Virus record (IMG/VR): IMGVR_UViG_3300020055_000004
Direction: 5' to 3' (one strand)
DNA length: 64,000 nt
Origin: a virus
Part shown: positions 53,219 to 63,783 of the stretch, one piece after another
Layout: every line of letters starts with the position of its first letter
Position numbering within the stretch: position 1 is the first letter of the stretch
The notes under the pieces: generated by a model
Told to the model about the DNA's origin: nothing
What the model saw: the letters and a program-made list of their open reading frames with translations, nothing else
Databases searched by the model: none
Position numbers and translations under genes: made by a program

Positions 53219-56200
53219 ATGGCATTACTTTCAGGTTTTGATCAGATAGATCCAGCTAACGACTCATTTAGCGATTGGTTACAAAAAACCAATGAGATGT
53301 TGTTGATCATCCGAGGTAACACAGTTCCCGGTACTACACAGGCAATGACTGCAAATAGTTTGCCCGGTGGTTCTATGACTTGGGGTAATGCGACACTCTT
53401 CGGTCAATTTACTGCCAACACAATGGTTGTACTCAATGATGGTGGAAACGACGGATCAGATGATAATGTTTTCGCTAACGGAAGCTTTGGTGGTTTAAGG
53501 GGCGGCAACTGGGATCCAGCAACTAATAATATTAGCGCCGATACACTTTACGTAGTTTCAAATACTACATTTACAGATGAAGGTAACGTTGTATATGTCG
53601 ATACAATGTACGGTCTTCAAGTAGAAGCCAATACAGAACTACGACATGATGTTTTGTTCGTAGGCAATGGCGGCACAGCCGTTAATCCAAAGTTGAAGTG
53701 GGAAGATGCTGATAATATCCTCAGCTTTAATGATAATGTCCGTGCAGTCTTTGGTAAAGATTCGGGTTCAGAAGTTGTAGGCGGTACAGGTCAAGCAGAA
53801 TTCTTATTTGTTGACGCAGATAGTCGAATGTATGTCAACACAGAGAACATGAACATTCGTGCAAATACTGACGTCAACTTTATTACAGATAACTTCGAGC
53901 TGAAGTCAGATATAGGTTCAGAACTTTATATCTCAGCTGATGTTGCAGATAACAGCACAGTCAAGCTATATTACGAAGGAAATCTTAGACTCTCCACGAA
54001 TACTCATGGTGTTGTAGTCGATGGTGATACTATTATCAAAGATGACATCGTAATGTTTGATACCGGTCGAATCATGATGGGTGGAACATACCCATATGAT
54101 GGCACACAAGATATTGCAACATATAACTTCCAGATTTATACTGATGGCACAGACGGTATTATTGTATCAGGTGATAAGGATCTAAATATTTTCGTGCACG
54201 AAGGATTCAATCTTACGAATGAGCCCGGTACGATAAACTTTATTACTGCAAATAACGATGGCTCGAGCGAAGTTGTTCTTTATAACAATGGTGATGCTCG
54301 TCTCGAAACAACAGGAACACAATTAGGTGAAGTACCGGGTGTAGAAGTATTTGGCGAAGCTAATACAACAACACTTCGAGTCAGAGAAGATGCAAACTTT
54401 GATGGATTTGGTGGACTTAATTCAAACAACGTACATTGGGATGCATCAGCAAATACGTGGAACTATCGTGACGCAACTAAGATTACTCTTGGTGACAGTG
54501 ATGACTGGGAAATGTTTTATACTGCTGCCGGTCGAGCCTATTCGAATACGGACAATCAAGACATTCGAGCTCGCGTCGATCTTAATATCATTTCAGATAT
54601 TGTAGAAATTAAATCAGAACTCGGTAGCGAATTGTATATGTCGGCCGATGTTGCTGACAATAGCACAGTTAAACTTTACTACGAAGGCAATGTAAGACTG
54701 TCGACAAATACACACGGTATAGTTGTTGATGGTGATACGATTGTAAAAGACAATGTCGTAGTCTTCGATAATAATAAGATTTTGATGGGTGGCACATATC
54801 CATACACAGGCGCCGAAGACATCGCTGATTATAATTTCCAAATTTACACCGATGGAACTGATGGTATTATTGTTTCTGGTGATAAAGATCTAAATATTTT
54901 TGTACACGAAGGATTTAATCTTACTAACGAGCCTGGCACTATTAGCTTTATTACTGCTAATAATGACGGATCGAGTGAAGTTGTTCTTTATAATGGTGGT
55001 GTTGCTAGACTTGAAACAACAGGAACACAATTAGGTGAAGTACCCGGCGTTGAAATACACGGTGAAGCAAATACAGATACGTTAAGAGTCACAGAAGATG
55101 CTAACTTCGATGGATCTGGTGGATTAGATTCTAATAATGTTCATTGGGATGCATCGGCTAATACATGGAACTACCGTGATGCAACTAAGATTACTCTTGG
55201 TGATAGCGATGATTGGGAGATGTTCTATCTAGCAGCTGGCCGTGCATACTCTAACACCGATAATATGGATATTCGTGCTCGCACAGACATGAATATGATT
55301 ACCGACACGTTTGAGTTGAAGTCTGAATCCGGTGCAGAATTATACATGTCAGCTAATGTAGCTGATAATAGCACAGTTAGATTATACTACGAAGGTTCTG
55401 AACGTCTACAAACAAATACACACGGTGTTGAAGTTACAGGTGAATTGGTAGCCAACGGTGGTATTGTTACATACAACGACCAACCAATCGAAATGGGTGG
55501 CGCGAACTACGCTGCAGCTCATAACTTTACGATTGTTACCGACGGTACTGATACAACAATTACAGAAACAGCTAATGATCTATTTGTTCGTGTACAAGAT
55601 AATTTCCGTGTCACTGATGATACCGGTGTTACTTCTCTTATCGTAGCAAACACATCAGGCGAAGTAACTCTCTATCATAATAACAATCAAAAGTTACAAA
55701 CAAATAATTATGGTATCGAAGTTACTGGCGAAGCTAATACTGGAACATTGCGGGTTCGTACTGACGCAAACTTCGACGGTACCGATGCTAATGGAGATAT
55801 TTTATTAGATTCTAATAATATGTCATGGGATGGTAGTGCTAATACATTATATTTAAAAGACAGTTCACCAATTGTAATTGGTGATGGCGGAGATCTAAGC
55901 ATTTATCATGACGGCACTAATAGTTATATTGAAGAAGCTAATACCGGTAGCCTTATTATCGAAGGTACAAATTTAGTACTAAGAGCGACTGACGATTCTC
56001 GCTATCTAGAAGGTATCGATGGAACTGGTACTCGACTTTATTCACCTGATGATACTATAGCATTAGTTGCAAACAATAATCAGATTCATATTACTGACCT
56101 CGCTAATACTTCAACTTTACGCGTCCGTAGTACTTCATTGTTTGAAGGTAGTATTGATATCGAAGGTTCTACAAGTGTTAATACTCTTACTTGGACTAAA

Positions 56201-58483
56201 TCGTCCAATACACTAAACTTCGATGATGATAACTTCGCTACATTTGGTACAGGTGGAGATTTAAGCGTTTATCATGATGCAAATAATTCATACATTGAGA
56301 ATATTACTGGTGAATTATATATTCAAGGCGATGGTATTACAATTAGAAGTCATACTGGCACTGAAGAATTTATAACTGCAGACGTAGGCGGCGCTGTCAC
56401 TTTATATTGGGATGATGCAATAAAGCTTCAAACAAATACAAATGGTATTGAAGTTACAGGTCAAGTCATTGCATCAACAGGTTTTGTTACATATAATGAT
56501 CAAAAGATTGAGATGGGTGGTACTAATTATGCAGATGCCCATATTTTCGAAATTTATACAGATGGTTCTAATAGCTATATTACAGAAACCGGTGGCGGCG
56601 ACTTAAATGTTCAGGCCAATAATCTTATTTTAGAAGCTACAGATGGAACAGATTATTTTGTAGCTACGAGTGGTGCAAATACTACTATTCATCATGGCGA
56701 CGGTACACAAATTCTAGAAATAAGAACTGACGGCGTCGACATTGAAGGCGAAGCTAATACTGATACGTTGCGTGTTCAAGGTAATGCTAAATTTGAAGGT
56801 ACAGACGATACAATTTACCTTGAGTGGTTGGCAGGCACTAAAGTACTTGATTTTAACGATGATGTAAAAGCTAGATTTGGCGATAATCATGACCTAGAAA
56901 TCTATAGCGACGGTTCGATTTCACATATCTTAGAAAGTGGTAGTGGTAATTTAGTTATTGAAGGTACAAATTTAACACTAAGAGCCACAGATGATACTAA
57001 TTATATGGCTGCTACAGACGGTGGCAGTGTACAATTGTACTACGCAGGCGAAGGTGCGAATAACATAGTACGAGTTTCTACGACTAATCTTGGTGTAGAT
57101 ATTGAAGGTGAAGCCAATACTGATACATTAAAAGTTCAAGGCGATGCAGCATTCCAAAATGGTGGAAATGATGAAATAAATTGGGAAGCTACTAATAATA
57201 TTCTAAATTTCAATGATGGTGTAAAAGCTACATTTGGTACTGATGATGATTTAGAAATTTACTTTGACGCTACAGGCAACAATTCAATAATTCGCGAAAC
57301 TGGCGGCGGCGATTTATATCTTCAAGCTAATGGTATGATACTTGAAGATACATCCGGTAATAATTATGTTGATATGGTAGCTGGTGGTGCGGTTTCTTTA
57401 TATCACAATGGTGCTACAAAATTAGCCACAAAGTCGACAGGTGTAGGAGTAACTGGACAATTAGATGTATCTACAAATATTGTAGCTGATGGTAATCTTA
57501 CTGTAAAAGGTAATACAACACTTGGTGATGCTAATACTGATACTATTGATGCAGTGGCCGAATTTGTAAGTAATTTAATACCTGAAGCAAATACCACATA
57601 TAATATTGGTAGCAGTGATAATAAATGGAATGATTTGCATCTAGATGGAGCCATGAATTCAGGCTCAATTCAAACTGGAATAATTGCCGGTGGCAATACT
57701 ACAATTACCGGCGACGTTGATGCAACTACATTTACTGGTAATGGCGCTGCGATTACCAATTTAAATGCATCCAATATTGATGCTGGTACAATTGGTGATG
57801 ATTATTTGCCTGATGAAATTTCATCCGATATTACCGGTACTGCAGCTCAAGCAAATACAGTTGAAATTCATACTTCTACAGACGATCAAGAATTTAGAGT
57901 AGCATTTACTGCCAATACTGCTGATTATCATGATATATATGCAGATTCTGGTTTATTATATAATCCAGTAGATAAGATACTATATGCTGACAATCTGACG
58001 GTCAATACAAATATTACTTTACCATCAGAAGTAACTTTAGCATTAGCAAATGTTACTGATCTTGAAGTGTCGAATACAGCAACAATTCTCAATCTAGAAG
58101 TAACATCGCTTGAAGCCAATGGCGTAGCATTTACCGGTACAGGTGGAGATGTAACTAGTAATGTAGCAACGCTTATCGATACTTTCCCAATCGAGCAAAC
58201 TCGTGGATTTAAATACTTTGTTCATGGTGAAGTTACCAACGATGATACTAAAGGATATGCAGTTGAGATCAATGTTATAACAACTGATACTGGTGCTGAT
58301 ACAAAGATTTTCTACACTCGATATGGTGAAGTAGAGAGTGGTATGGCAGATGTTAATTTAGTACCACAACTCGCTGCAAATAATACTCATATCGATTTAA
58401 TGGCCACGTGCGACTCTGCAACGGCTACTGATATTCATAGATTTAATGTACTTAAAATTGAAACAAGGGATAATGGTGTATAA
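53219..58483 (+). CDS. Long tail fibre-like protein with tandem internal repeats
   Basis: N-terminal DSFSDWLQKTN attachment motif; repeated D..K..FG...DL.IY.DG.NSYI.E modules. Confidence 0.75.
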   Translation: MALLSGFDQIDPANDSFSDWLQKTNEMLLIIRGNTVPGTTQAMTANSLPGGSMTWGNATLFGQFTANTMVVLNDGGNDGSDDNVFANGSFGGLRGGNWDPATNNISADTLYVVSNTTFTDEGNVVYVDTMYGLQVEANTELRHDVLFVGNGGTAVNPKLKWEDADNILSFNDNVRAVFGKDSGSEVVGGTGQAEFLFVDADSRMYVNTENMNIRANTDVNFITDNFELKSDIGSELYISADVADNSTVKLYYEGNLRLSTNTHGVVVDGDTIIKDDIVMFDTGRIMMGGTYPYDGTQDIATYNFQIYTDGTDGIIVSGDKDLNIFVHEGFNLTNEPGTINFITANNDGSSEVVLYNNGDARLETTGTQLGEVPGVEVFGEANTTTLRVREDANFDGFGGLNSNNVHWDASANTWNYRDATKITLGDSDDWEMFYTAAGRAYSNTDNQDIRARVDLNIISDIVEIKSELGSELYMSADVADNSTVKLYYEGNVRLSTNTHGIVVDGDTIVKDNVVVFDNNKILMGGTYPYTGAEDIADYNFQIYTDGTDGIIVSGDKDLNIFVHEGFNLTNEPGTISFITANNDGSSEVVLYNGGVARLETTGTQLGEVPGVEIHGEANTDTLRVTEDANFDGSGGLDSNNVHWDASANTWNYRDATKITLGDSDDWEMFYLAAGRAYSNTDNMDIRARTDMNMITDTFELKSESGAELYMSANVADNSTVRLYYEGSERLQTNTHGVEVTGELVANGGIVTYNDQPIEMGGANYAAAHNFTIVTDGTDTTITETANDLFVRVQDNFRVTDDTGVTSLIVANTSGEVTLYHNNNQKLQTNNYGIEVTGEANTGTLRVRTDANFDGTDANGDILLDSNNMSWDGSANTLYLKDSSPIVIGDGGDLSIYHDGTNSYIEEANTGSLIIEGTNLVLRATDDSRYLEGIDGTGTRLYSPDDTIALVANNNQIHITDLANTSTLRVRSTSLFEGSIDIEGSTSVNTLTWTKSSNTLNFDDDNFATFGTGGDLSVYHDANNSYIENITGELYIQGDGITIRSHTGTEEFITADVGGAVTLYWDDAIKLQTNTNGIEVTGQVIASTGFVTYNDQKIEMGGTNYADAHIFEIYTDGSNSYITETGGGDLNVQANNLILEATDGTDYFVATSGANTTIHHGDGTQILEIRTDGVDIEGEANTDTLRVQGNAKFEGTDDTIYLEWLAGTKVLDFNDDVKARFGDNHDLEIYSDGSISHILESGSGNLVIEGTNLTLRATDDTNYMAATDGGSVQLYYAGEGANNIVRVSTTNLGVDIEGEANTDTLKVQGDAAFQNGGNDEINWEATNNILNFNDGVKATFGTDDDLEIYFDATGNNSIIRETGGGDLYLQANGMILEDTSGNNYVDMVAGGAVSLYHNGATKLATKSTGVGVTGQLDVSTNIVADGNLTVKGNTTLGDANTDTIDAVAEFVSNLIPEANTTYNIGSSDNKWNDLHLDGAMNSGSIQTGIIAGGNTTITGDVDATTFTGNGAAITNLNASNIDAGTIGDDYLPDEISSDITGTAAQANTVEIHTSTDDQEFRVAFTANTADYHDIYADSGLLYNPVDKILYADNLTVNTNITLPSEVTLALANVTDLEVSNTATILNLEVTSLEANGVAFTGTGGDVTSNVATLIDTFPIEQTRGFKYFVHGEVTNDDTKGYAVEINVITTDTGADTKIFYTRYGEVESGMADVNLVPQLAANNTHIDLMATCDSATATDIHRFNVLKIETRDNGV
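53830..55500 (+). repeat. 708-bp (236-aa) tandem repeat in the fibre gene, about 2.3 copies (boundaries approximate)
   Basis: [DN]VADNSTV anchors at 53939, 54647 and 55355 (708-bp period). Confidence 0.85.
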
Positions 58484-58896
58484 TGGCAAATGTAATCTAT
58501 GATAAATACAAAGAAGCATTGATTAGTGCTAGTAATGATGTTGCTCTCAATGCAGGTAATTTAAAAGTATCACTTATAGATTCTGATGTAACTATGTTTG
58601 GATCTACAGATGAATTTTATGCTGATCTTAATTCGTCAGCTGGAGTGGCAGCTACAGTGACATTAACAAATGTTACAGTAACTAATGGTGTACTAGATGC
58701 AGATGACGTTGTTTTCGAAAGTGTGGCAAATACAACACCCGAGTCAGAAGCACTTTTATTTTGGATTGATACTACTAACACTGCTACTTCACGATTAGTA
58801 GCGTGGCTTGATACAAATATAGACGGGTTTCCGATTACGCCAGATGGTTCTAACGTAGATATTACGTGGAGTACTTCAGGCATTTTCAAATTATAG
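58483..58896 (+). CDS. Tail-associated structural protein
   Basis: LKVSLID...GVLDADDVVF...PITPDGSNVDITW..GIFKL; within the tail module. Confidence 0.6.
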   Translation: MANVIYDKYKEALISASNDVALNAGNLKVSLIDSDVTMFGSTDEFYADLNSSAGVAATVTLTNVTVTNGVLDADDVVFESVANTTPESEALLFWIDTTNTATSRLVAWLDTNIDGFPITPDGSNVDITWSTSGIFKL

Positions 58897-58906
58897 AGAG
58901 AAGTAA

Positions 58907-60085
58907 ATGACTGCTACCTCACAAAAATTTGACACATTAGACGGGTTAGTTGTTACTGGCTCAATGGAGGTTGGTGCCAATTTAGCAGTTGACACCAATG
59001 TCTTATTCGTTGATACCGTAAACAATCGGGTCGGCATAAACGATTCATCACCATCATATCCGCTTGATGTAGTTGGCACTGCACAAATTACAGGTGGCTT
59101 ATATATTGGCACCAATATTACTCACGTCGGCGACACTGATACCACGATCGGATTCTCGAACAATCAAATTGATATTACAGCTGGCAATGCAAATATAGCA
59201 AGTGCTAATACTACTATGCTATCAATTAATGCTGGTGATGGTATACAAGTAAGAGGTGTTAGTCCTACTAGTACATTTGCTACAAATACAGAAAAAGCTG
59301 ATGGCGGCATTGGTGTTAATTCTATAAACACATCAATGATACTATCACAAGATGATACTGCCACTGGTATTATTTTTGGTGCTTTGACGAACGATGATGT
59401 ACCAGATCCTAATTTTGGTGGTACTTGGTCAAGCACATCAGCTGATGAAATATCGATAATTATTGGTGATCGAAGACGGGCATATTTTGATAACGACGGT
59501 CTTCATTTTTCTAACCTCTCGGCATCTGATAACACAATTGATGGTGTTGATAATGTAGAGATTCTTAGTAGTATTACTCATAGCGGCGATGTTGCAACAA
59601 AATTAGAATTTGATGCTACTGCATCTATAAGATTGGTATCAAATGGATCTGAAAGATTAAAAGTTAATGCTACACAAACATATATTAGTGGTGATTTAGA
59701 TGTAACAACTGACATCATGGCGCGCCGTATTCAAGTAGAAGATTATTTTAAGGAAACTGTAGTAGCTGCATCAACAGGAAATTCAGTAAACATAAACGTA
59801 AATTCTGGTTCGGTATATACATTTACGCCAAATGCTAACTATTCGGTTGATTTTACAAATTTCCCAACGGCAGCTGGTGAAGCTGCAGCGTTTACTTTAG
59901 TCATAGATAACAATGGCACCGCAAGAGAAGCTACGTGGCCAGGGGAACTAGAAGGAGATGCTATATATTGGGCAGAATCAGTAGAACCTCCATCGTCATC
60001 TGGAATTGACATATATAATTTTGTAGTAATTGCTGGTAAAATATATGGTTCATTATCAATTCGAAATGCTGGTTGGGCACAGTAA
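58907..60085 (+). CDS. Tail fibre-like protein
   Basis: LAVDTNVLFVDTVNNRVGI...P.YPLDV.G; C-terminal FTNFP...FTLVI...W...GIDIYNF domain. Confidence 0.7.
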   Translation: MTATSQKFDTLDGLVVTGSMEVGANLAVDTNVLFVDTVNNRVGINDSSPSYPLDVVGTAQITGGLYIGTNITHVGDTDTTIGFSNNQIDITAGNANIASANTTMLSINAGDGIQVRGVSPTSTFATNTEKADGGIGVNSINTSMILSQDDTATGIIFGALTNDDVPDPNFGGTWSSTSADEISIIIGDRRRAYFDNDGLHFSNLSASDNTIDGVDNVEILSSITHSGDVATKLEFDATASIRLVSNGSERLKVNATQTYISGDLDVTTDIMARRIQVEDYFKETVVAASTGNSVNINVNSGSVYTFTPNANYSVDFTNFPTAAGEAAAFTLVIDNNGTAREATWPGELEGDAIYWAESVEPPSSSGIDIYNFVVIAGKIYGSLSIRNAGWAQ

Positions 60086-60100
60086 TAAAGAGGATGTAAT

Positions 60101-62449
60101 ATGCCAATAGGAGGCGGAAAAAGTTTTCTAGATAGAACGTGGGCTGCCACTTTTTCTGAAACTAGATATAAAGAAGCAACGTCAGGTACAACTGATGCTA
60201 CTCCTATCTCTATTCCTTATGGTCGTCAAATCATTGAGATTGAGGCTAGAGGTGGTGGTGCTAGTGCTCCAACATTAAAAGCAGCATATAGTACAACTAA
60301 AGCAGTTTATCAAACTAATGCAATTACTAATTATCCATCACGATTGCAGAAGGCTGCCTATCAGAATCAAACAAACTATCCTTCTAGATTACAGAAAGCT
60401 GCTTATCAGATTCAAACCAATTTTCCTTCTCGGTTGCAAAAATCTGCTTACCAAAATCAAACTAATTATCCTTCTCGGTTGCAAAAAGCTGCCTATCAGA
60501 ATCAAACCAATTATCCTTCTCGGTTGCAAAAATCTGCTTACCAAAATCAAACTAATTATCCTAGTAGACAGCAGAAGGCCGCCTATAGTGTTATCACTAA
60601 TTACCCTAGTAGAGAACAAAAAGCTGCTTACCAAAATCAAACCGATTATCCTAGCAGACAGGTGAAAGCTGCCTATAGTGTTATCACTAATTATCCTAGT
60701 AGAGAACAAAAAGCTGCTTACCAAAATCAAACGGATTACCCTAGTAGACAGCAGAAGGCCGCTTACCAAAATCAAACCGATTATCCTAGTAGACAACAAA
60801 AGGCCGCCTATAGTGTTATCACTAATTACCCTAGCAGACAGCAAAAAGCTGCTTACCAAAATCAAACGGATTATCCTAGTAGACAGGTGAAAGCTGCCTA
60901 TAGTGTTATCACTAATTACCCTAGCAGACAGGCGAAGGCTGCCTATAGTGTTATCACTAATTATCCTGGCAGACTGCAAAAATCTGCCTATAGTGTTATC
61001 ACTAATTATCCTAGTAGACAGCAGAAGGCTGCCTATCAAAATCAAACCGATTATCCTAGTAGACAGGTGAAAGCTGCCTATCAAGATCAAACAGATTATC
61101 CTAGTAGACAGGTGAAAGGTGCCTATAGTGTTATCACTAATTACCCTAGCAGACAGCAAAAGGGTGCTTATTCTAATGTTGCTAACTTCCCAGCAAGGAC
61201 CACTTCTTTTACTCAAGCAGCTTATTCTTCAGGTTATACTTTCGGGCAGGTATTTTTTCCGACCTATCAAACATTTACTGCTACAGCGTATTACCCGTCG
61301 CGAGTTGTATATTCGGGAAAAGCTGCTTATTCACAAACAACAAACTATCCTGCTAGAAATAATCCAGCATACCAAAATCAAACTGATTATCCTGCTAGAA
61401 ATCAAGCAGCATATTCAGTTGTAACAACCTATCCTGCTAGAAACAAAGCAGCATATTCGGTTATAACAAACTATCCTGCTAGAAACAATCCGGCATACCA
61501 AAATCAAACTGATTATCCTGCTAGAAATAATCCAGCATACCAAAATCAAACTGATTATCCTGCTAGAAATAATCCAGCATACCAAAATCAAACAGATTAT
61601 CCTGCTAGAAATCAAGCAGCATATTCTGTTGTAACAAATTATCCTGCTAGAAATAATCCAGCATACCAAAATCAAACTGATTATCCTGTTAGAAATAATC
61701 CAGCATATTCGGTTGTAACAAACTATCCGTTGCGTAATAATCCAGCATATTCAGTTGTAACAAACTATCCTGTTAGAAACAATCCGGCATATCAAAATCA
61801 AACAGATTATCCTGCTAGAAATCAAGCAGCATATTCTGTTGTAACAAATTATCCATTGCGTAATAATCCAGCTTATTCGGTTGTAACAAACTATCCTGTT
61901 AGAAACAATCCGGCTTATTCTGTTGTAACAAACTATCCATCACGTAATCAGCCGGCTTATTCAGTTGTAACAAATTATCCATTGCGTAATAATCCAGCAT
62001 ATGCGGTTGCAACATATTATCCATTGCGTAATAATCCAGCATATTCTGTTGTAACAAACTATCCTGCTAGAAATAATCCAGCATACCAAGTTGTAACAAA
62101 TTATCCATCACGCAATCAGCCGGCATATTCGGTAACTAATGTTACTAATTATCCTTCTCGTGTAACTAATTATCCAGCAAGAACTACACTCGGGCTTGCT
62201 GGTGATGACACAACAGTTCAATGGACAACTCCTGATGGTACTCCTGTTAGTGTAACTGCGCCGGGTGCTGCACCTAATGTTACAAATTATGTTACGGCTG
62301 CAGCAACAGCAACATATGTACAAATTACTAATCCAAATGAAGTCGATGGTATAGATGGTACAGACTTATCGGTAAGTGTTGGTAATTCCCCAGCTGGTAA
62401 TAATAATGCTACTAATAGAGGATATATAAATATAAAATACAGTGGTTAA
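60101..62449 (+). CDS. Putative virion fibre/appendage: glycine-rich-domain halves enclosing a mirror-ordered repeat hairpin
   Basis: N-terminal IPYG..IIEIEARGGG and C-terminal GYINIKY halves flank about 40 Tyr/Pro-rich repeats. Confidence 0.7.
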   Translation: MPIGGGKSFLDRTWAATFSETRYKEATSGTTDATPISIPYGRQIIEIEARGGGASAPTLKAAYSTTKAVYQTNAITNYPSRLQKAAYQNQTNYPSRLQKAAYQIQTNFPSRLQKSAYQNQTNYPSRLQKAAYQNQTNYPSRLQKSAYQNQTNYPSRQQKAAYSVITNYPSREQKAAYQNQTDYPSRQVKAAYSVITNYPSREQKAAYQNQTDYPSRQQKAAYQNQTDYPSRQQKAAYSVITNYPSRQQKAAYQNQTDYPSRQVKAAYSVITNYPSRQAKAAYSVITNYPGRLQKSAYSVITNYPSRQQKAAYQNQTDYPSRQVKAAYQDQTDYPSRQVKGAYSVITNYPSRQQKGAYSNVANFPARTTSFTQAAYSSGYTFGQVFFPTYQTFTATAYYPSRVVYSGKAAYSQTTNYPARNNPAYQNQTDYPARNQAAYSVVTTYPARNKAAYSVITNYPARNNPAYQNQTDYPARNNPAYQNQTDYPARNNPAYQNQTDYPARNQAAYSVVTNYPARNNPAYQNQTDYPVRNNPAYSVVTNYPLRNNPAYSVVTNYPVRNNPAYQNQTDYPARNQAAYSVVTNYPLRNNPAYSVVTNYPVRNNPAYSVVTNYPSRNQPAYSVVTNYPLRNNPAYAVATYYPLRNNPAYSVVTNYPARNNPAYQVVTNYPSRNQPAYSVTNVTNYPSRVTNYPARTTLGLAGDDTTVQWTTPDGTPVSVTAPGAAPNVTNYVTAAATATYVQITNPNEVDGIDGTDLSVSVGNSPAGNNNATNRGYINIKYSG
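60350..61159 (+). repeat. Arm 1: 18 tandem 45-bp (15-aa) repeats K[AGS]AY(QNQT[ND]|SVITN)YPSRxx
   Basis: Units counted directly; unit 1 at 60350, unit 18 at 61115. Confidence 0.95.
61319..62116 (+). repeat. Arm 2: 19 tandem 42-bp (14-aa) repeats [NQK][PA]AY(QNQTD|SVVTN)YPxRN
   Basis: Units counted directly; first at 61319, last regular unit at 62075. Confidence 0.95.
62425..62432 (+). promoter_or_regulatory. T4 late promoter TATAAATA
   Basis: Exact consensus about 30 nt upstream of the 2OG oxygenase start. Confidence 0.55.
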
Positions 62450-62464
62450 CAAGGTAATTATATT

Positions 62465-63079
62465 ATGCATGAAATTGAGAAGTTGACTCCCGGTCATAAT
62501 CTCCAGCGATTTGGTGTTTATGAAAATGTATTTGATGAAGATGAAATTAATAAAATTAGATTTTTTAAAAAAATTATTAATTTCGAATCTGGTGAAACAT
62601 ATTCTGAACGATCTGAAGGTAAAAAAGTACCTGATTCTACAGATAAAGTTCGGGATTGCAAAGTAGCAAGCCTTCATAGAGAACAAAATACAAATATAGT
62701 CTATGAAAAAATTGGTCATTTAGTTGGCAGAGCTAACTATGATCATTTTCTTTATCCAATTATAGGTATGGAAGATATTCAATATGTTATCTACGACGGG
62801 CCAGGCACTAAATATGATCCACATACAGACGTTCTATTACAAGGCTATAGACCAAAAGATAGAAGAATTTCTGGTATTGTTATGCTATCTGATCCTGAAG
62901 ACTATGAAGGTGGTGAATTAACTATAGATTTAGATGGAAATGGCCATTTATATCCAATTGAATTGAAGAAAGGTGCTGTCGTGTTTTTTGACAGTCATAT
63001 GTTACACCAAGTTACTCCACTTATATCTGGCAATAGAGAAACGCTAGTGTTTTGGGTTTGGGGAGATAGTCAAATATAA
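62465..63079 (+). CDS. 2OG-Fe(II) oxygenase (prolyl-hydroxylase-like)
   Basis: YDPHTD, RRISGIVMLSDPEDYEGGEL, FDSHMLHQVTP and RETLVFW motifs. Confidence 0.9.
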   Translation: MHEIEKLTPGHNLQRFGVYENVFDEDEINKIRFFKKIINFESGETYSERSEGKKVPDSTDKVRDCKVASLHREQNTNIVYEKIGHLVGRANYDHFLYPIIGMEDIQYVIYDGPGTKYDPHTDVLLQGYRPKDRRISGIVMLSDPEDYEGGELTIDLDGNGHLYPIELKKGAVVFFDSHMLHQVTPLISGNRETLVFWVWGDSQI

Positions 63080-63783
63080 TGTTTTTTAATAACGATAAAA
63101 TTGAATTTATTATTGAACCAGAATTGCATGAAGTTTTACCTGAGCCAGTACCTGCAAATAAACACATTCCGGAATGGTTTAGAAAGATTCCTTTAAAAAC
63201 TGAGCAAAGAACGAATACTATGCCGGGTGCCACGGCAAAAAAATGTTTGCCTATGTTGGATGCTATGACGCTTGGTTATATTGTGCCTCTTCAAGGCGAT
63301 GTTCATGTTATTACTAATGACGATTGTAGTGTATTATCTGCAGAACATATGCAAGATAGTACTTTACCATTTGTTGAAAGACATTCGTTTAGTCAACTTA
63401 AATCAACTGGTTGGAAAACTGGAAAACAAGATCCTTTAAAGTTTATAAATTATTATGGAATTAAAACTCCGCCTGGATGGTCGTGTTTATTTCAACCACT
63501 ACCTAGTGTCTGGAATTTACCATATACAGTTTTAAGTGGTGTTGTTGATACTGATCAATATCATAGTCCAGTTAATTTTCCAGTAATTTGGCATCAACCA
63601 AATTTTGATGATACACTACTCGCAGGTATGCCATTAGTACATGTCGTGCCATTTAAAAGACAAAAGCATAAACACATTATTAGACCTATGAATGAAAAAG
63701 AATGCAAACAGCGAGATAAACTTAATGTTGCAAATCGAACACGATTAGGAACTTATACAAAAGAATTGCGTGAAATAAGATGA
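63079..63783 (+). CDS. Conserved phage protein (KKCLP..D....GY...TPPGWS...SGVVDTD; possible dUTPase-like fold)
   Basis: Motif family often found beside 2OG oxygenases in aquatic phages; TAATG coupling. Confidence 0.65.
   Translation: MFFNNDKIEFIIEPELHEVLPEPVPANKHIPEWFRKIPLKTEQRTNTMPGATAKKCLPMLDAMTLGYIVPLQGDVHVITNDDCSVLSAEHMQDSTLPFVERHSFSQLKSTGWKTGKQDPLKFINYYGIKTPPGWSCLFQPLPSVWNLPYTVLSGVVDTDQYHSPVNFPVIWHQPNFDDTLLAGMPLVHVVPFKRQKHKHIIRPMNEKECKQRDKLNVANRTRLGTYTKELREIR

Follow-up and report, generated by a model that had tools for sequence, protein, structure and literature searches.

We describe here a viral protein of 782 amino acids (aa), P0001, in which two long arrays of short repeat units mirror each other across a central apex, such that polar units of one array stand opposite beta-branched units of the other. 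Its gene lies at positions 60101..62449 on the + strand of the window, by which we mean the whole 64,000-nucleotide (nt) stretch analysed from IMG/VR virus record IMGVR_UViG_3300020055_000004. The two arrays, arm 1 and arm 2, occupy an insert of 635 residues (60278-62182, residues 60-694) between the halves of a small base to which both termini contribute; among relatives the arms change jointly, and no DNA-level cause of the symmetry was found. From these regularities in the sequences, we consider it very probable that the two arms run alongside each other in antiparallel orientation and pair unit by unit.

Mirror order of the two arms

Unit boundaries were set by cutting the translation after each [YF]PxR, which recovered exactly the 18 regular 15-aa units of arm 1 and 18 regular 14-aa units of arm 2 claimed by an earlier reading of this DNA (hereafter the original prediction). 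An arm-1 unit consists of a linker of 4 residues and a core AY-x5-YPSR, an arm-2 unit of a linker of 3 residues and a core AY-x5-YPxR, and in both arms the core is of type Q (polar, QNQT[DN]) or type S (beta-branched, SV[IV]TN). The protein is rich in Tyr, Pro and Thr, its rungs are discrete, and its apex is aromatic and without Cys. No His occurs in the arms of the 782-aa translation, nor any HxH motif, and this translation also lacks the Gly-X-Y periodicity of a collagen-like fibre. In order, its parts are as follows.

60101..60277, +, N-terminal half of the base, residues 1-59, with conserved GGKxF.D+TWA.TF ... PYG+Q ... RGG (family alignments; AlphaFold2 (AF2) strands at residues 17-23, 41-50 and 58-60)
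60278..60343, +, outermost irregular arm-1 rungs, a stub of 7 aa and a core with 2 extra aa (counterpart: 62114-62182)
60344..61153, +, arm 1, 18 units of exactly 15 aa, residues 82-351 ([YF]PxR cutting)
61154..61198, +, innermost arm-1 unit with an odd core, residues 352-366 ([YF]PxR cutting)
61199..61303, +, apex, 35 aa, aromatic-rich, residues 367-401 (least self-similar segment, at 0.52 of the insert)
61304..61357, +, innermost arm-2 unit with an odd core, residues 402-419 ([YF]PxR cutting)
61358..62113, +, arm 2, 18 units of exactly 14 aa, residues 420-671 ([YF]PxR cutting)
62114..62182, +, outermost irregular arm-2 rungs, a 16-aa unit (core 2 aa longer) and a 7-aa stub ([YF]PxR cutting)
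62183..62446, +, C-terminal half of the base, 88 aa, residues 695-782, ending ...GYINIKY.. (family alignments; AF2 strands at residues 694-781)

With unit k set against unit 40-k, the 18 mirror rungs comprise 11 Q:S, 6 S:Q and one S:S, with no Q:Q, so that 17 of 18 are complementary, including all 12 of the aperiodic inner zone. These counts agree with the original prediction. All 25 other registers and orientations score 4-11 by complement or identity count (complement count alone, at most 10), and because Q:S and S:Q follow one another without periodicity through the inner 12 rungs, only one register fits the rule. In the permutation test that the original prediction had proposed, shuffles of arm 2 reached 17 with p=4e-4 at the fixed register and with p=1e-3 over any register, orientation or mode.

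The linkers provide a second signal beside the cores, partly independent of them. Four arm-1 linkers of "QV" type come after rungs 7, 12, 16 and 17, and the four arm-2 linkers of the form N[QK]A, with Ala for Pro, precede exactly the same four rungs; the probability of this 4/4 coincidence is 1/C(18,4) = 1/3060 (3.3e-4), or 1/495 (2e-3) if only S-type partners are considered. The original prediction had expressed it as four arm-1 units ending RQV, all opposite QAAY or KAAY units. That the arm-1 linker after core k co-varies with the arm-2 linker before the partner core is as antiparallel geometry predicts. The irregular units are likewise mirrored in the way first described: two cores that are 2 aa longer, two 7-aa stubs and two odd innermost cores.

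At the DNA level, the gene contains only two 16-nt inverted matches, attributable to chance. Serine is encoded by AGT in 7/7 arm-1 S cores and by TCN in those of arm 2, and S cores are 63% identical between arms as compared to 96% and 80% within them. The symmetry thus exists at the protein level only, with codons specific to each arm, as had been claimed. These data bear on the idea that the mirror is a by-product of array growth, through tandem duplication centred on the apex or inverted duplication of DNA, with no pairing in the protein. By our own reasoning, apex-centred duplication would maintain complementarity automatically, and the periodic pattern of one relative (L013, below) could come from direct duplication. 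Such growth would nonetheless put arm-2-type units into arm 1, and every arm-1 unit is of the 15-aa, AGT form, every arm-2 unit of the 14-aa, TCN form; moreover, neither the window gene nor the closest relative (L028) has an inverted DNA repeat, and parallel order scores at chance. We regard this explanation as largely refuted and very improbable. Two further candidates, an inverted DNA repeat as the cause and parallel pairing of the arms, are rejected on these grounds for both the window gene and L028.

Relatives and their pairing rules

Profile and pattern searches retrieved ~30 relatives from estuarine, salt-marsh and marine metagenomes and viromes, with none from cultured phages. Both terminal segments are present in all of them, while the segment between ranges from ~40 to ~830 aa (~635 aa in the window), giving proteins of 179 to 973 aa whose inserts are made of several divergent repeat types. 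The family is recognised by conserved segments at both termini, a unique apex at the centre, arms that mirror each other and a four-gene cassette (below). A tblastn search of cultured phages with P0001 and P0021 found no true relative, its one weak match (34%, E 1e-5) being to the repeats alone of a Ruminococcus phage repeat protein. No Pfam family matched the 782-aa protein at E<=0.01, PHROGs gave it only two unannotated, repeat-driven matches, and sequence search of the PDB with P0001 (at E<=1) and with the L003 protein gave none. An ESM Atlas look-up returned nothing useful. Viral contigs scanned for the Q-core DNA pattern had no match, two further scans of viral contigs added only L028 and L029, and a protein search with the L028 N-domain found nothing.

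The closest relative (L028/L029) is a 973-aa protein with the same cassette and an upstream fibre protein that is 57% identical. It has 23+23 cores of 13 aa, of four types that form two complementary pairs. At mirror register 0, 22 of its 23 rungs obey the rule (V:Q or Q:V in 12, S:T or T:S in 7, odd:odd in 3), as compared to 2-11 in other registers, and rung 3 has an identical short 11-aa unit on each of the arms. In mirror order the mutual information is 1.97 bits, a level reached by 0 of 200,000 shuffles, versus 0.92 in parallel order, and L028 has no inverted DNA repeat. In terms of sequence, then, a code of two letters in the window has as its counterpart a code of four letters, in two pairs, in this relative. 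We also note a 91-nt exact direct repeat common to arm 1 and arm 2 (L028:3001-5922), both copies in S-type units, which implies that units have been exchanged between arms in L028, unlike in the window with its separate codon sets.

In L003, of a divergent subfamily with units of 18-19 aa, a polar/aromatic type A faces a hydrophobic/basic type B in 10/10 rungs, and long units of 24 aa stand at rungs 1 and 10 on both arms. Comparison of L003 with L013 reveals flips on both arms at rungs 6, 7, 8 and 10. L005 is nearly all of S type; with linkers and cores taken as separate tokens, by length and variant, 23/24 tokens are equal in mirror order, a value reached by 0 of 20,000 unit shuffles. Its mirrored items include linkers of 5 versus 6 residues, aromatic linkers, cores of "SN" type (rungs 2 and 6) and cores of 13 aa (rung 9). 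The mutually related L009, L007, L001 and P0006 have 12/13, 11/12, 15/17 and 9/10 mirror-equal positions, respectively (p 0.03-0.05 each). Between L001 and L009, the difference is exactly two units of 17 aa per arm, at corresponding positions. An assumption-free test asked which segment of each insert resembles the rest least: for 17 of 20 proteins (inserts of 323-638 aa) this segment falls at a fraction of 0.48-0.53, so the arms stay equal while total length doubles; for subfamily iii (L023/P0025), our claim is restricted to this central apex. The matched gain and loss of units on both arms that the original prediction had expected of homologues is thus seen in L001/L009 and in the central position of the apex, and the flips of L003/L013 keep the pairing logic on both arms.

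Wherever a rule is heterotypic, what stands opposite the polar type is always beta-branched or hydrophobic, with no polar:polar rung. The binary Q:S code itself, put forward in the original prediction, holds in the window with its 17/18 rungs and unique register, but does not extend to a general rule. It is specific to one lineage, other codes being S:S (L005, L001), A:B (L003) and the four-type, two-pair code of L028.

Some family members are short. P0021/L022, P0024 and P0006 correspond to long forms (L018, L013 and the L009 type) from which the whole middle is missing, the absent stretch running from an arm-1 unit to a like arm-2 unit, so that the remnant is a still-symmetrical mini-hairpin. 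These may be deletions in phage alleles or collapsed contigs. Apices of the A/B subfamily (L003:6001-7944, L013:54-2063) are unique segments of 40-60 aa with two to four Cys, which suggests a small disulfide-bonded tip domain.

Predicted fold and arm geometry

AF2 models the base as a beta-sandwich built from both termini, with predicted local distance difference test (pLDDT) values of 70-90; in the prediction of the full 782-aa protein, from a 20-row alignment, they are up to 84 in the N-terminal half and 70-87 in the C-terminal half. This supports the earlier claim that the insert sits within one small domain made by the two termini. For the minimal 179-aa member, the AF2 model (pLDDT 86-91) is a meander in which a core strand, a tight turn at Pro-x (YPxR), a linker strand and another turn lead into the next core. 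Foldseek found nothing for that model at E<=0.001 in the PDB or BFVD. Its best VIA-align score was Z 7.0, with C1q, TNF-family, PRD1 P5 and Bdellovibrio fibre heads at Z 5.3-6.1; the base would appear to be a generic jelly-roll-like sandwich without family assignment. A predicted complex of three 179-aa copies scored 0.00 and was used neither for nor against any reading.

With both termini in one beta-sandwich in each of the two AF2 models, an intramolecular fold-back rod with the apex at its far end is the simplest topology. Covariation in sequence is blind to whether a contact is made within or between chains, and phage fibres are usually trimers with intertwined chains, e.g. the T4 gp37 needle (PMC7291167), so mirror pairing might instead join arm 1 of one subunit to arm 2 of another, in an antiparallel dimer or a trimer swap. 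We think this unlikely: the AF2 termini form one compact domain and the apex is central, making an intramolecular return simplest, and an antiparallel dimer would set its two bases at opposite ends.

Proposed zipper and points against it

In the arrangement that we favour, with the arms of one chain paired side by side, the first ~59 and last ~88 residues would fold into one small beta-sandwich base, and the 635 residues between would run outward to the aromatic apex (residues 367-401) and then return. Pairing of the outgoing and returning arrays would yield 21 rungs, each with one 11-residue core per arm, and the linkers on the apex side of each rung would also face each other. A Q core would need an S core opposite, Q:Q being absent and S:S tolerated, and the polar and the beta-branched or hydrophobic partners could offer complementary side-chain packing between the arms. 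The unique register given by the pattern could fix an otherwise monotonous zipper and prevent slipped pairing. Each arm would evolve by its own unit duplications and conversions while selection keeps the partner compensated, as in an RNA stem. Of the readings considered, antiparallel arms with each rung a packing unit under selection is the one that accounts for all of the data. We infer the direct contact of the arms, the beta nature of the rungs and the register role of the pattern from the joint constraints described above.

Those constraints show only that the two members of each rung are jointly limited, and the arms could in principle co-vary without touching, if both lay at the same height on a third body and shared its axial level. 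The shaft of the upstream fibre-like protein, whose gene is invariably adjacent, is one such body. We give this arrangement a slim chance, since heterotypic rules (Q/S, V/Q, S/T and A/B) are what direct packing of two partners predicts, and the length of the upstream protein varies far less than that of the insert (~40 to ~830 aa).

Several observations weigh against direct pairing or limit how far it may be taken. Same-type units within one arm are 90-100% identical in DNA, so the 18 rungs are not independent observations. S:S rungs are the norm in relatives, and heterotypic pairing is therefore not obligatory. The 10/10 score of L013 adds little, the pattern of that protein being periodic and self-complementary. 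In L014, 13 units of one arm face 6 of the other; compared with L013:54-2063, L014:1953-3740 is missing 222 nt (four units) of arm 2, flanked by direct repeats of 40 nt, in genes that are otherwise ~95-99% identical, and this is either a natural variant with unmatched arms or an artefact of assembly. AF2 leaves the arms of the window protein unmodelled, with pLDDT ~30 and no secondary structure, and the hairpins within each arm of the minimal-member model imply that contact across the arms may be sheet-on-sheet rather than strand-to-strand. Function is read from gene context only. Lastly, the order of units in the window rests on one short-read assembly.

The last point leads to the reading that a repetitive array was mis-assembled, or that the pattern arose by chance. 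The sequence was assembled from short metagenomic reads, and in four other salt-marsh runs every placed piece is exact but contigs break inside the array, so these runs speak neither for nor against the unit order. No exact internal repeat of the gene exceeds 62 nt, however, such that paired 150-nt reads are able to order the array; mis-assembly would scramble a mirror pattern rather than create one, the permutation p-values are 4e-4 for cores and 3e-4 for linkers, and independent proteins of other samples obey the same logic. We see almost no chance that this reading is correct.

If the arms do pair as proposed, two geometries can be envisaged. The arms could form an axial two-stranded ribbon (six-stranded if trimeric), for which simple arithmetic gives up to ~100 nm when fully extended, or two beta-meander sheets could lie face to face, in which case 20 rungs would measure ~20 nm with two strands per unit, if the meander of the minimal member holds for the long forms. 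That the arms differ constantly by one residue (15 versus 14 here, 17 versus 16 in L016) favours modular rungs over one uninterrupted strand pair. Of the hairpin originally proposed, the mirror-order relation of the arms stands at the protein level, but a single fully extended two-stranded hairpin of 90-100 nm is one candidate only; the minimal-member model would instead give a much shorter two-layer ribbon.

Comparison with known systems

Fold-back fibres have a precedent in the T4 gp37 needle, in which the chain runs to a tip domain and returns with antiparallel segments (PMC7291167). The window protein resembles it in its fold-back chain, here deduced from sequence, and in the position of its gene in the tail-fibre block of a T4-type phage. 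It differs in having dozens of tandem units and complementarity of unit types, the needle being short with His-x-His iron sites. No sequence, Pfam or fold match relates the window protein to gp37.

SMC, Rad50 and MukB proteins combine a head made by two termini with a very long antiparallel arm, an apex domain and matched irregularities of the two strands. The topology that we propose is the same, but their arms are alpha-helical coiled coils with heptads, as opposed to predicted beta units with rungs of 14-19 aa, and their sequences and functions are unrelated. The triple beta-spiral shafts of adenovirus fibre, reovirus sigma1 and PRD1 P5 consist of ~15-residue beta repeats with a Pro/Gly turn and end in a jelly-roll knob. 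The window units are similar in length (15 and 14 aa), and the PRD1 P5 head is a weak fold match (Z 5.5); triple beta-spirals, however, have three parallel chains running in one direction, without a return arm or mirrored pattern, and another repeat consensus. Choline- and cell-wall-binding repeats and the OspA single-layer sheet are one-directional arrays with local contacts only. They share with the present family short aromatic-rich units and, in the AF2 model of the minimal member, stacked beta-hairpins. Pfam finds none of these families in the window protein.

Conceptually, RNA stems and the two-layer HET-s amyloid are alike in that complementary partners set the register and compensatory double changes occur. 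The former are nucleic acid and the latter is a two-layer prion amyloid, unlike a long tandem-repeat protein with a unit alphabet of two or four letters. Our literature searches found no description of this family, of such an architecture, of a unit-level pairing code in proteins or of hydroxylated phage fibres. The original prediction knew of no described equivalent; for the rung alphabet and its compensatory evolution we agree, but the fold-back itself has known counterparts in the gp37 needle and in SMC/Rad50 topology.

Whether the whole amounts to a new fibrous architecture is, in our estimation, an even call. Such an architecture would be a protein "stem-loop" with repeat arms zipped by a complementary unit alphabet (two letters here, four in two pairs in the closest relative), its register and length encoded and evolving by compensation in the manner of an RNA helix and its fold legible in the sequence itself, and a neighbouring oxygenase might hydroxylate the Pro (or Asn) of each unit to stabilise the zipper. 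If this were true, a discrete heterotypic alphabet between repeat units would hold a very long beta structure in register, a principle so far known from nucleic acids and, loosely, coiled coils. The family would then also be a rare case in which long-range contacts of a fibrous protein can be read from covariation within single sequences, and a natural system for the co-expansion of two repeat arrays. Its modular rungs could interest protein designers.

Gene neighbourhood and candidate functions

The window comes from a 94-kb IMG/VR virus record, about half a genome, that contains T4-type baseplate and tail genes (tube cap, hub, and gp6-, gp7- and gp8-like wedge proteins) as well as a ribonucleotide reductase gene. 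Its gp6-like protein is nearest to those of Caulobacter phage Cr30 and Sinorhizobium phiM12-type phages, at 38% only. Judged by these genes, the phage is an uncultured T4-like myovirus with the repeat-protein gene in its baseplate/tail-fibre block. In marine T4-like phages a "host recognition cluster" lies downstream of VrlC (PMC7029224), and the region of 60101-62449 corresponds to that cluster. The gene sits 3' of genes for very large structural proteins, with the 392-aa fibre-like protein encoded immediately before it. Megablast of the gene neighbourhood found no match. The genes of the cassette in the window are as follows.

58483..58896, +, 137-aa protein, phrog_644, first gene of the conserved four-gene cassette (PHROG match, synteny)
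58907..60085, +, tail-fibre-like protein, 392 aa, directly upstream (PHROG tail-fibre matches; synteny in all loci with flank)
60101..62449, +, fold-back fibre protein gene, 782 aa, P0001 (both terminal domains common to homologues)
62465..63079, +, 2-oxoglutarate (2OG)-Fe(II) oxygenase, PF13640, P4H-type, directly downstream (Pfam/PHROG match; synteny)

This order (137-aa protein, fibre-like protein, fold-back gene, P4H-type 2OG oxygenase) recurs in every locus with enough flank. From this setting we infer that the protein is a distal fibre or adhesin attached to the virion through its base, with the apex as a distal tip that probably contacts the receptor. If so, it would represent a new hypervariable fibre/adhesin module of uncultured estuarine and marine T4-like phages, whose reach varies ~twenty-fold among relatives.

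The oxygenase start lies 15-65 nt past the fold-back gene in every locus with flank, and the HxD...H residues were seen by eye in the proteins of the window, L001 and L003. Across the family, every repeat type keeps one or more Pro in each unit. Pro in every unit together with the fixed oxygenase neighbour makes hydroxylation of the fibre a testable idea, and the oxygenase is a candidate modifier of the repeats; its fixed link would make post-translational modification of a virion protein directly testable. A DUF6065-like gene (63079-63783 in the window) is often next after the oxygenase.

One candidate for docking with the base domain is the upstream fibre-like protein (58907-60085). Its C-terminal segment (...IYGSL.IRNA...) is conserved in all loci, and its middle is variable, with 31-57% identity between loci. 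Further upstream, a 1754-aa neighbour (53219-58483) contains several long internal repeats of ~250-290 aa each, and blocks of the form "...ADNSTVKLYYEGN..." recur in its translation; it has the appearance of a modular fibre or of a protein attached to the baseplate.

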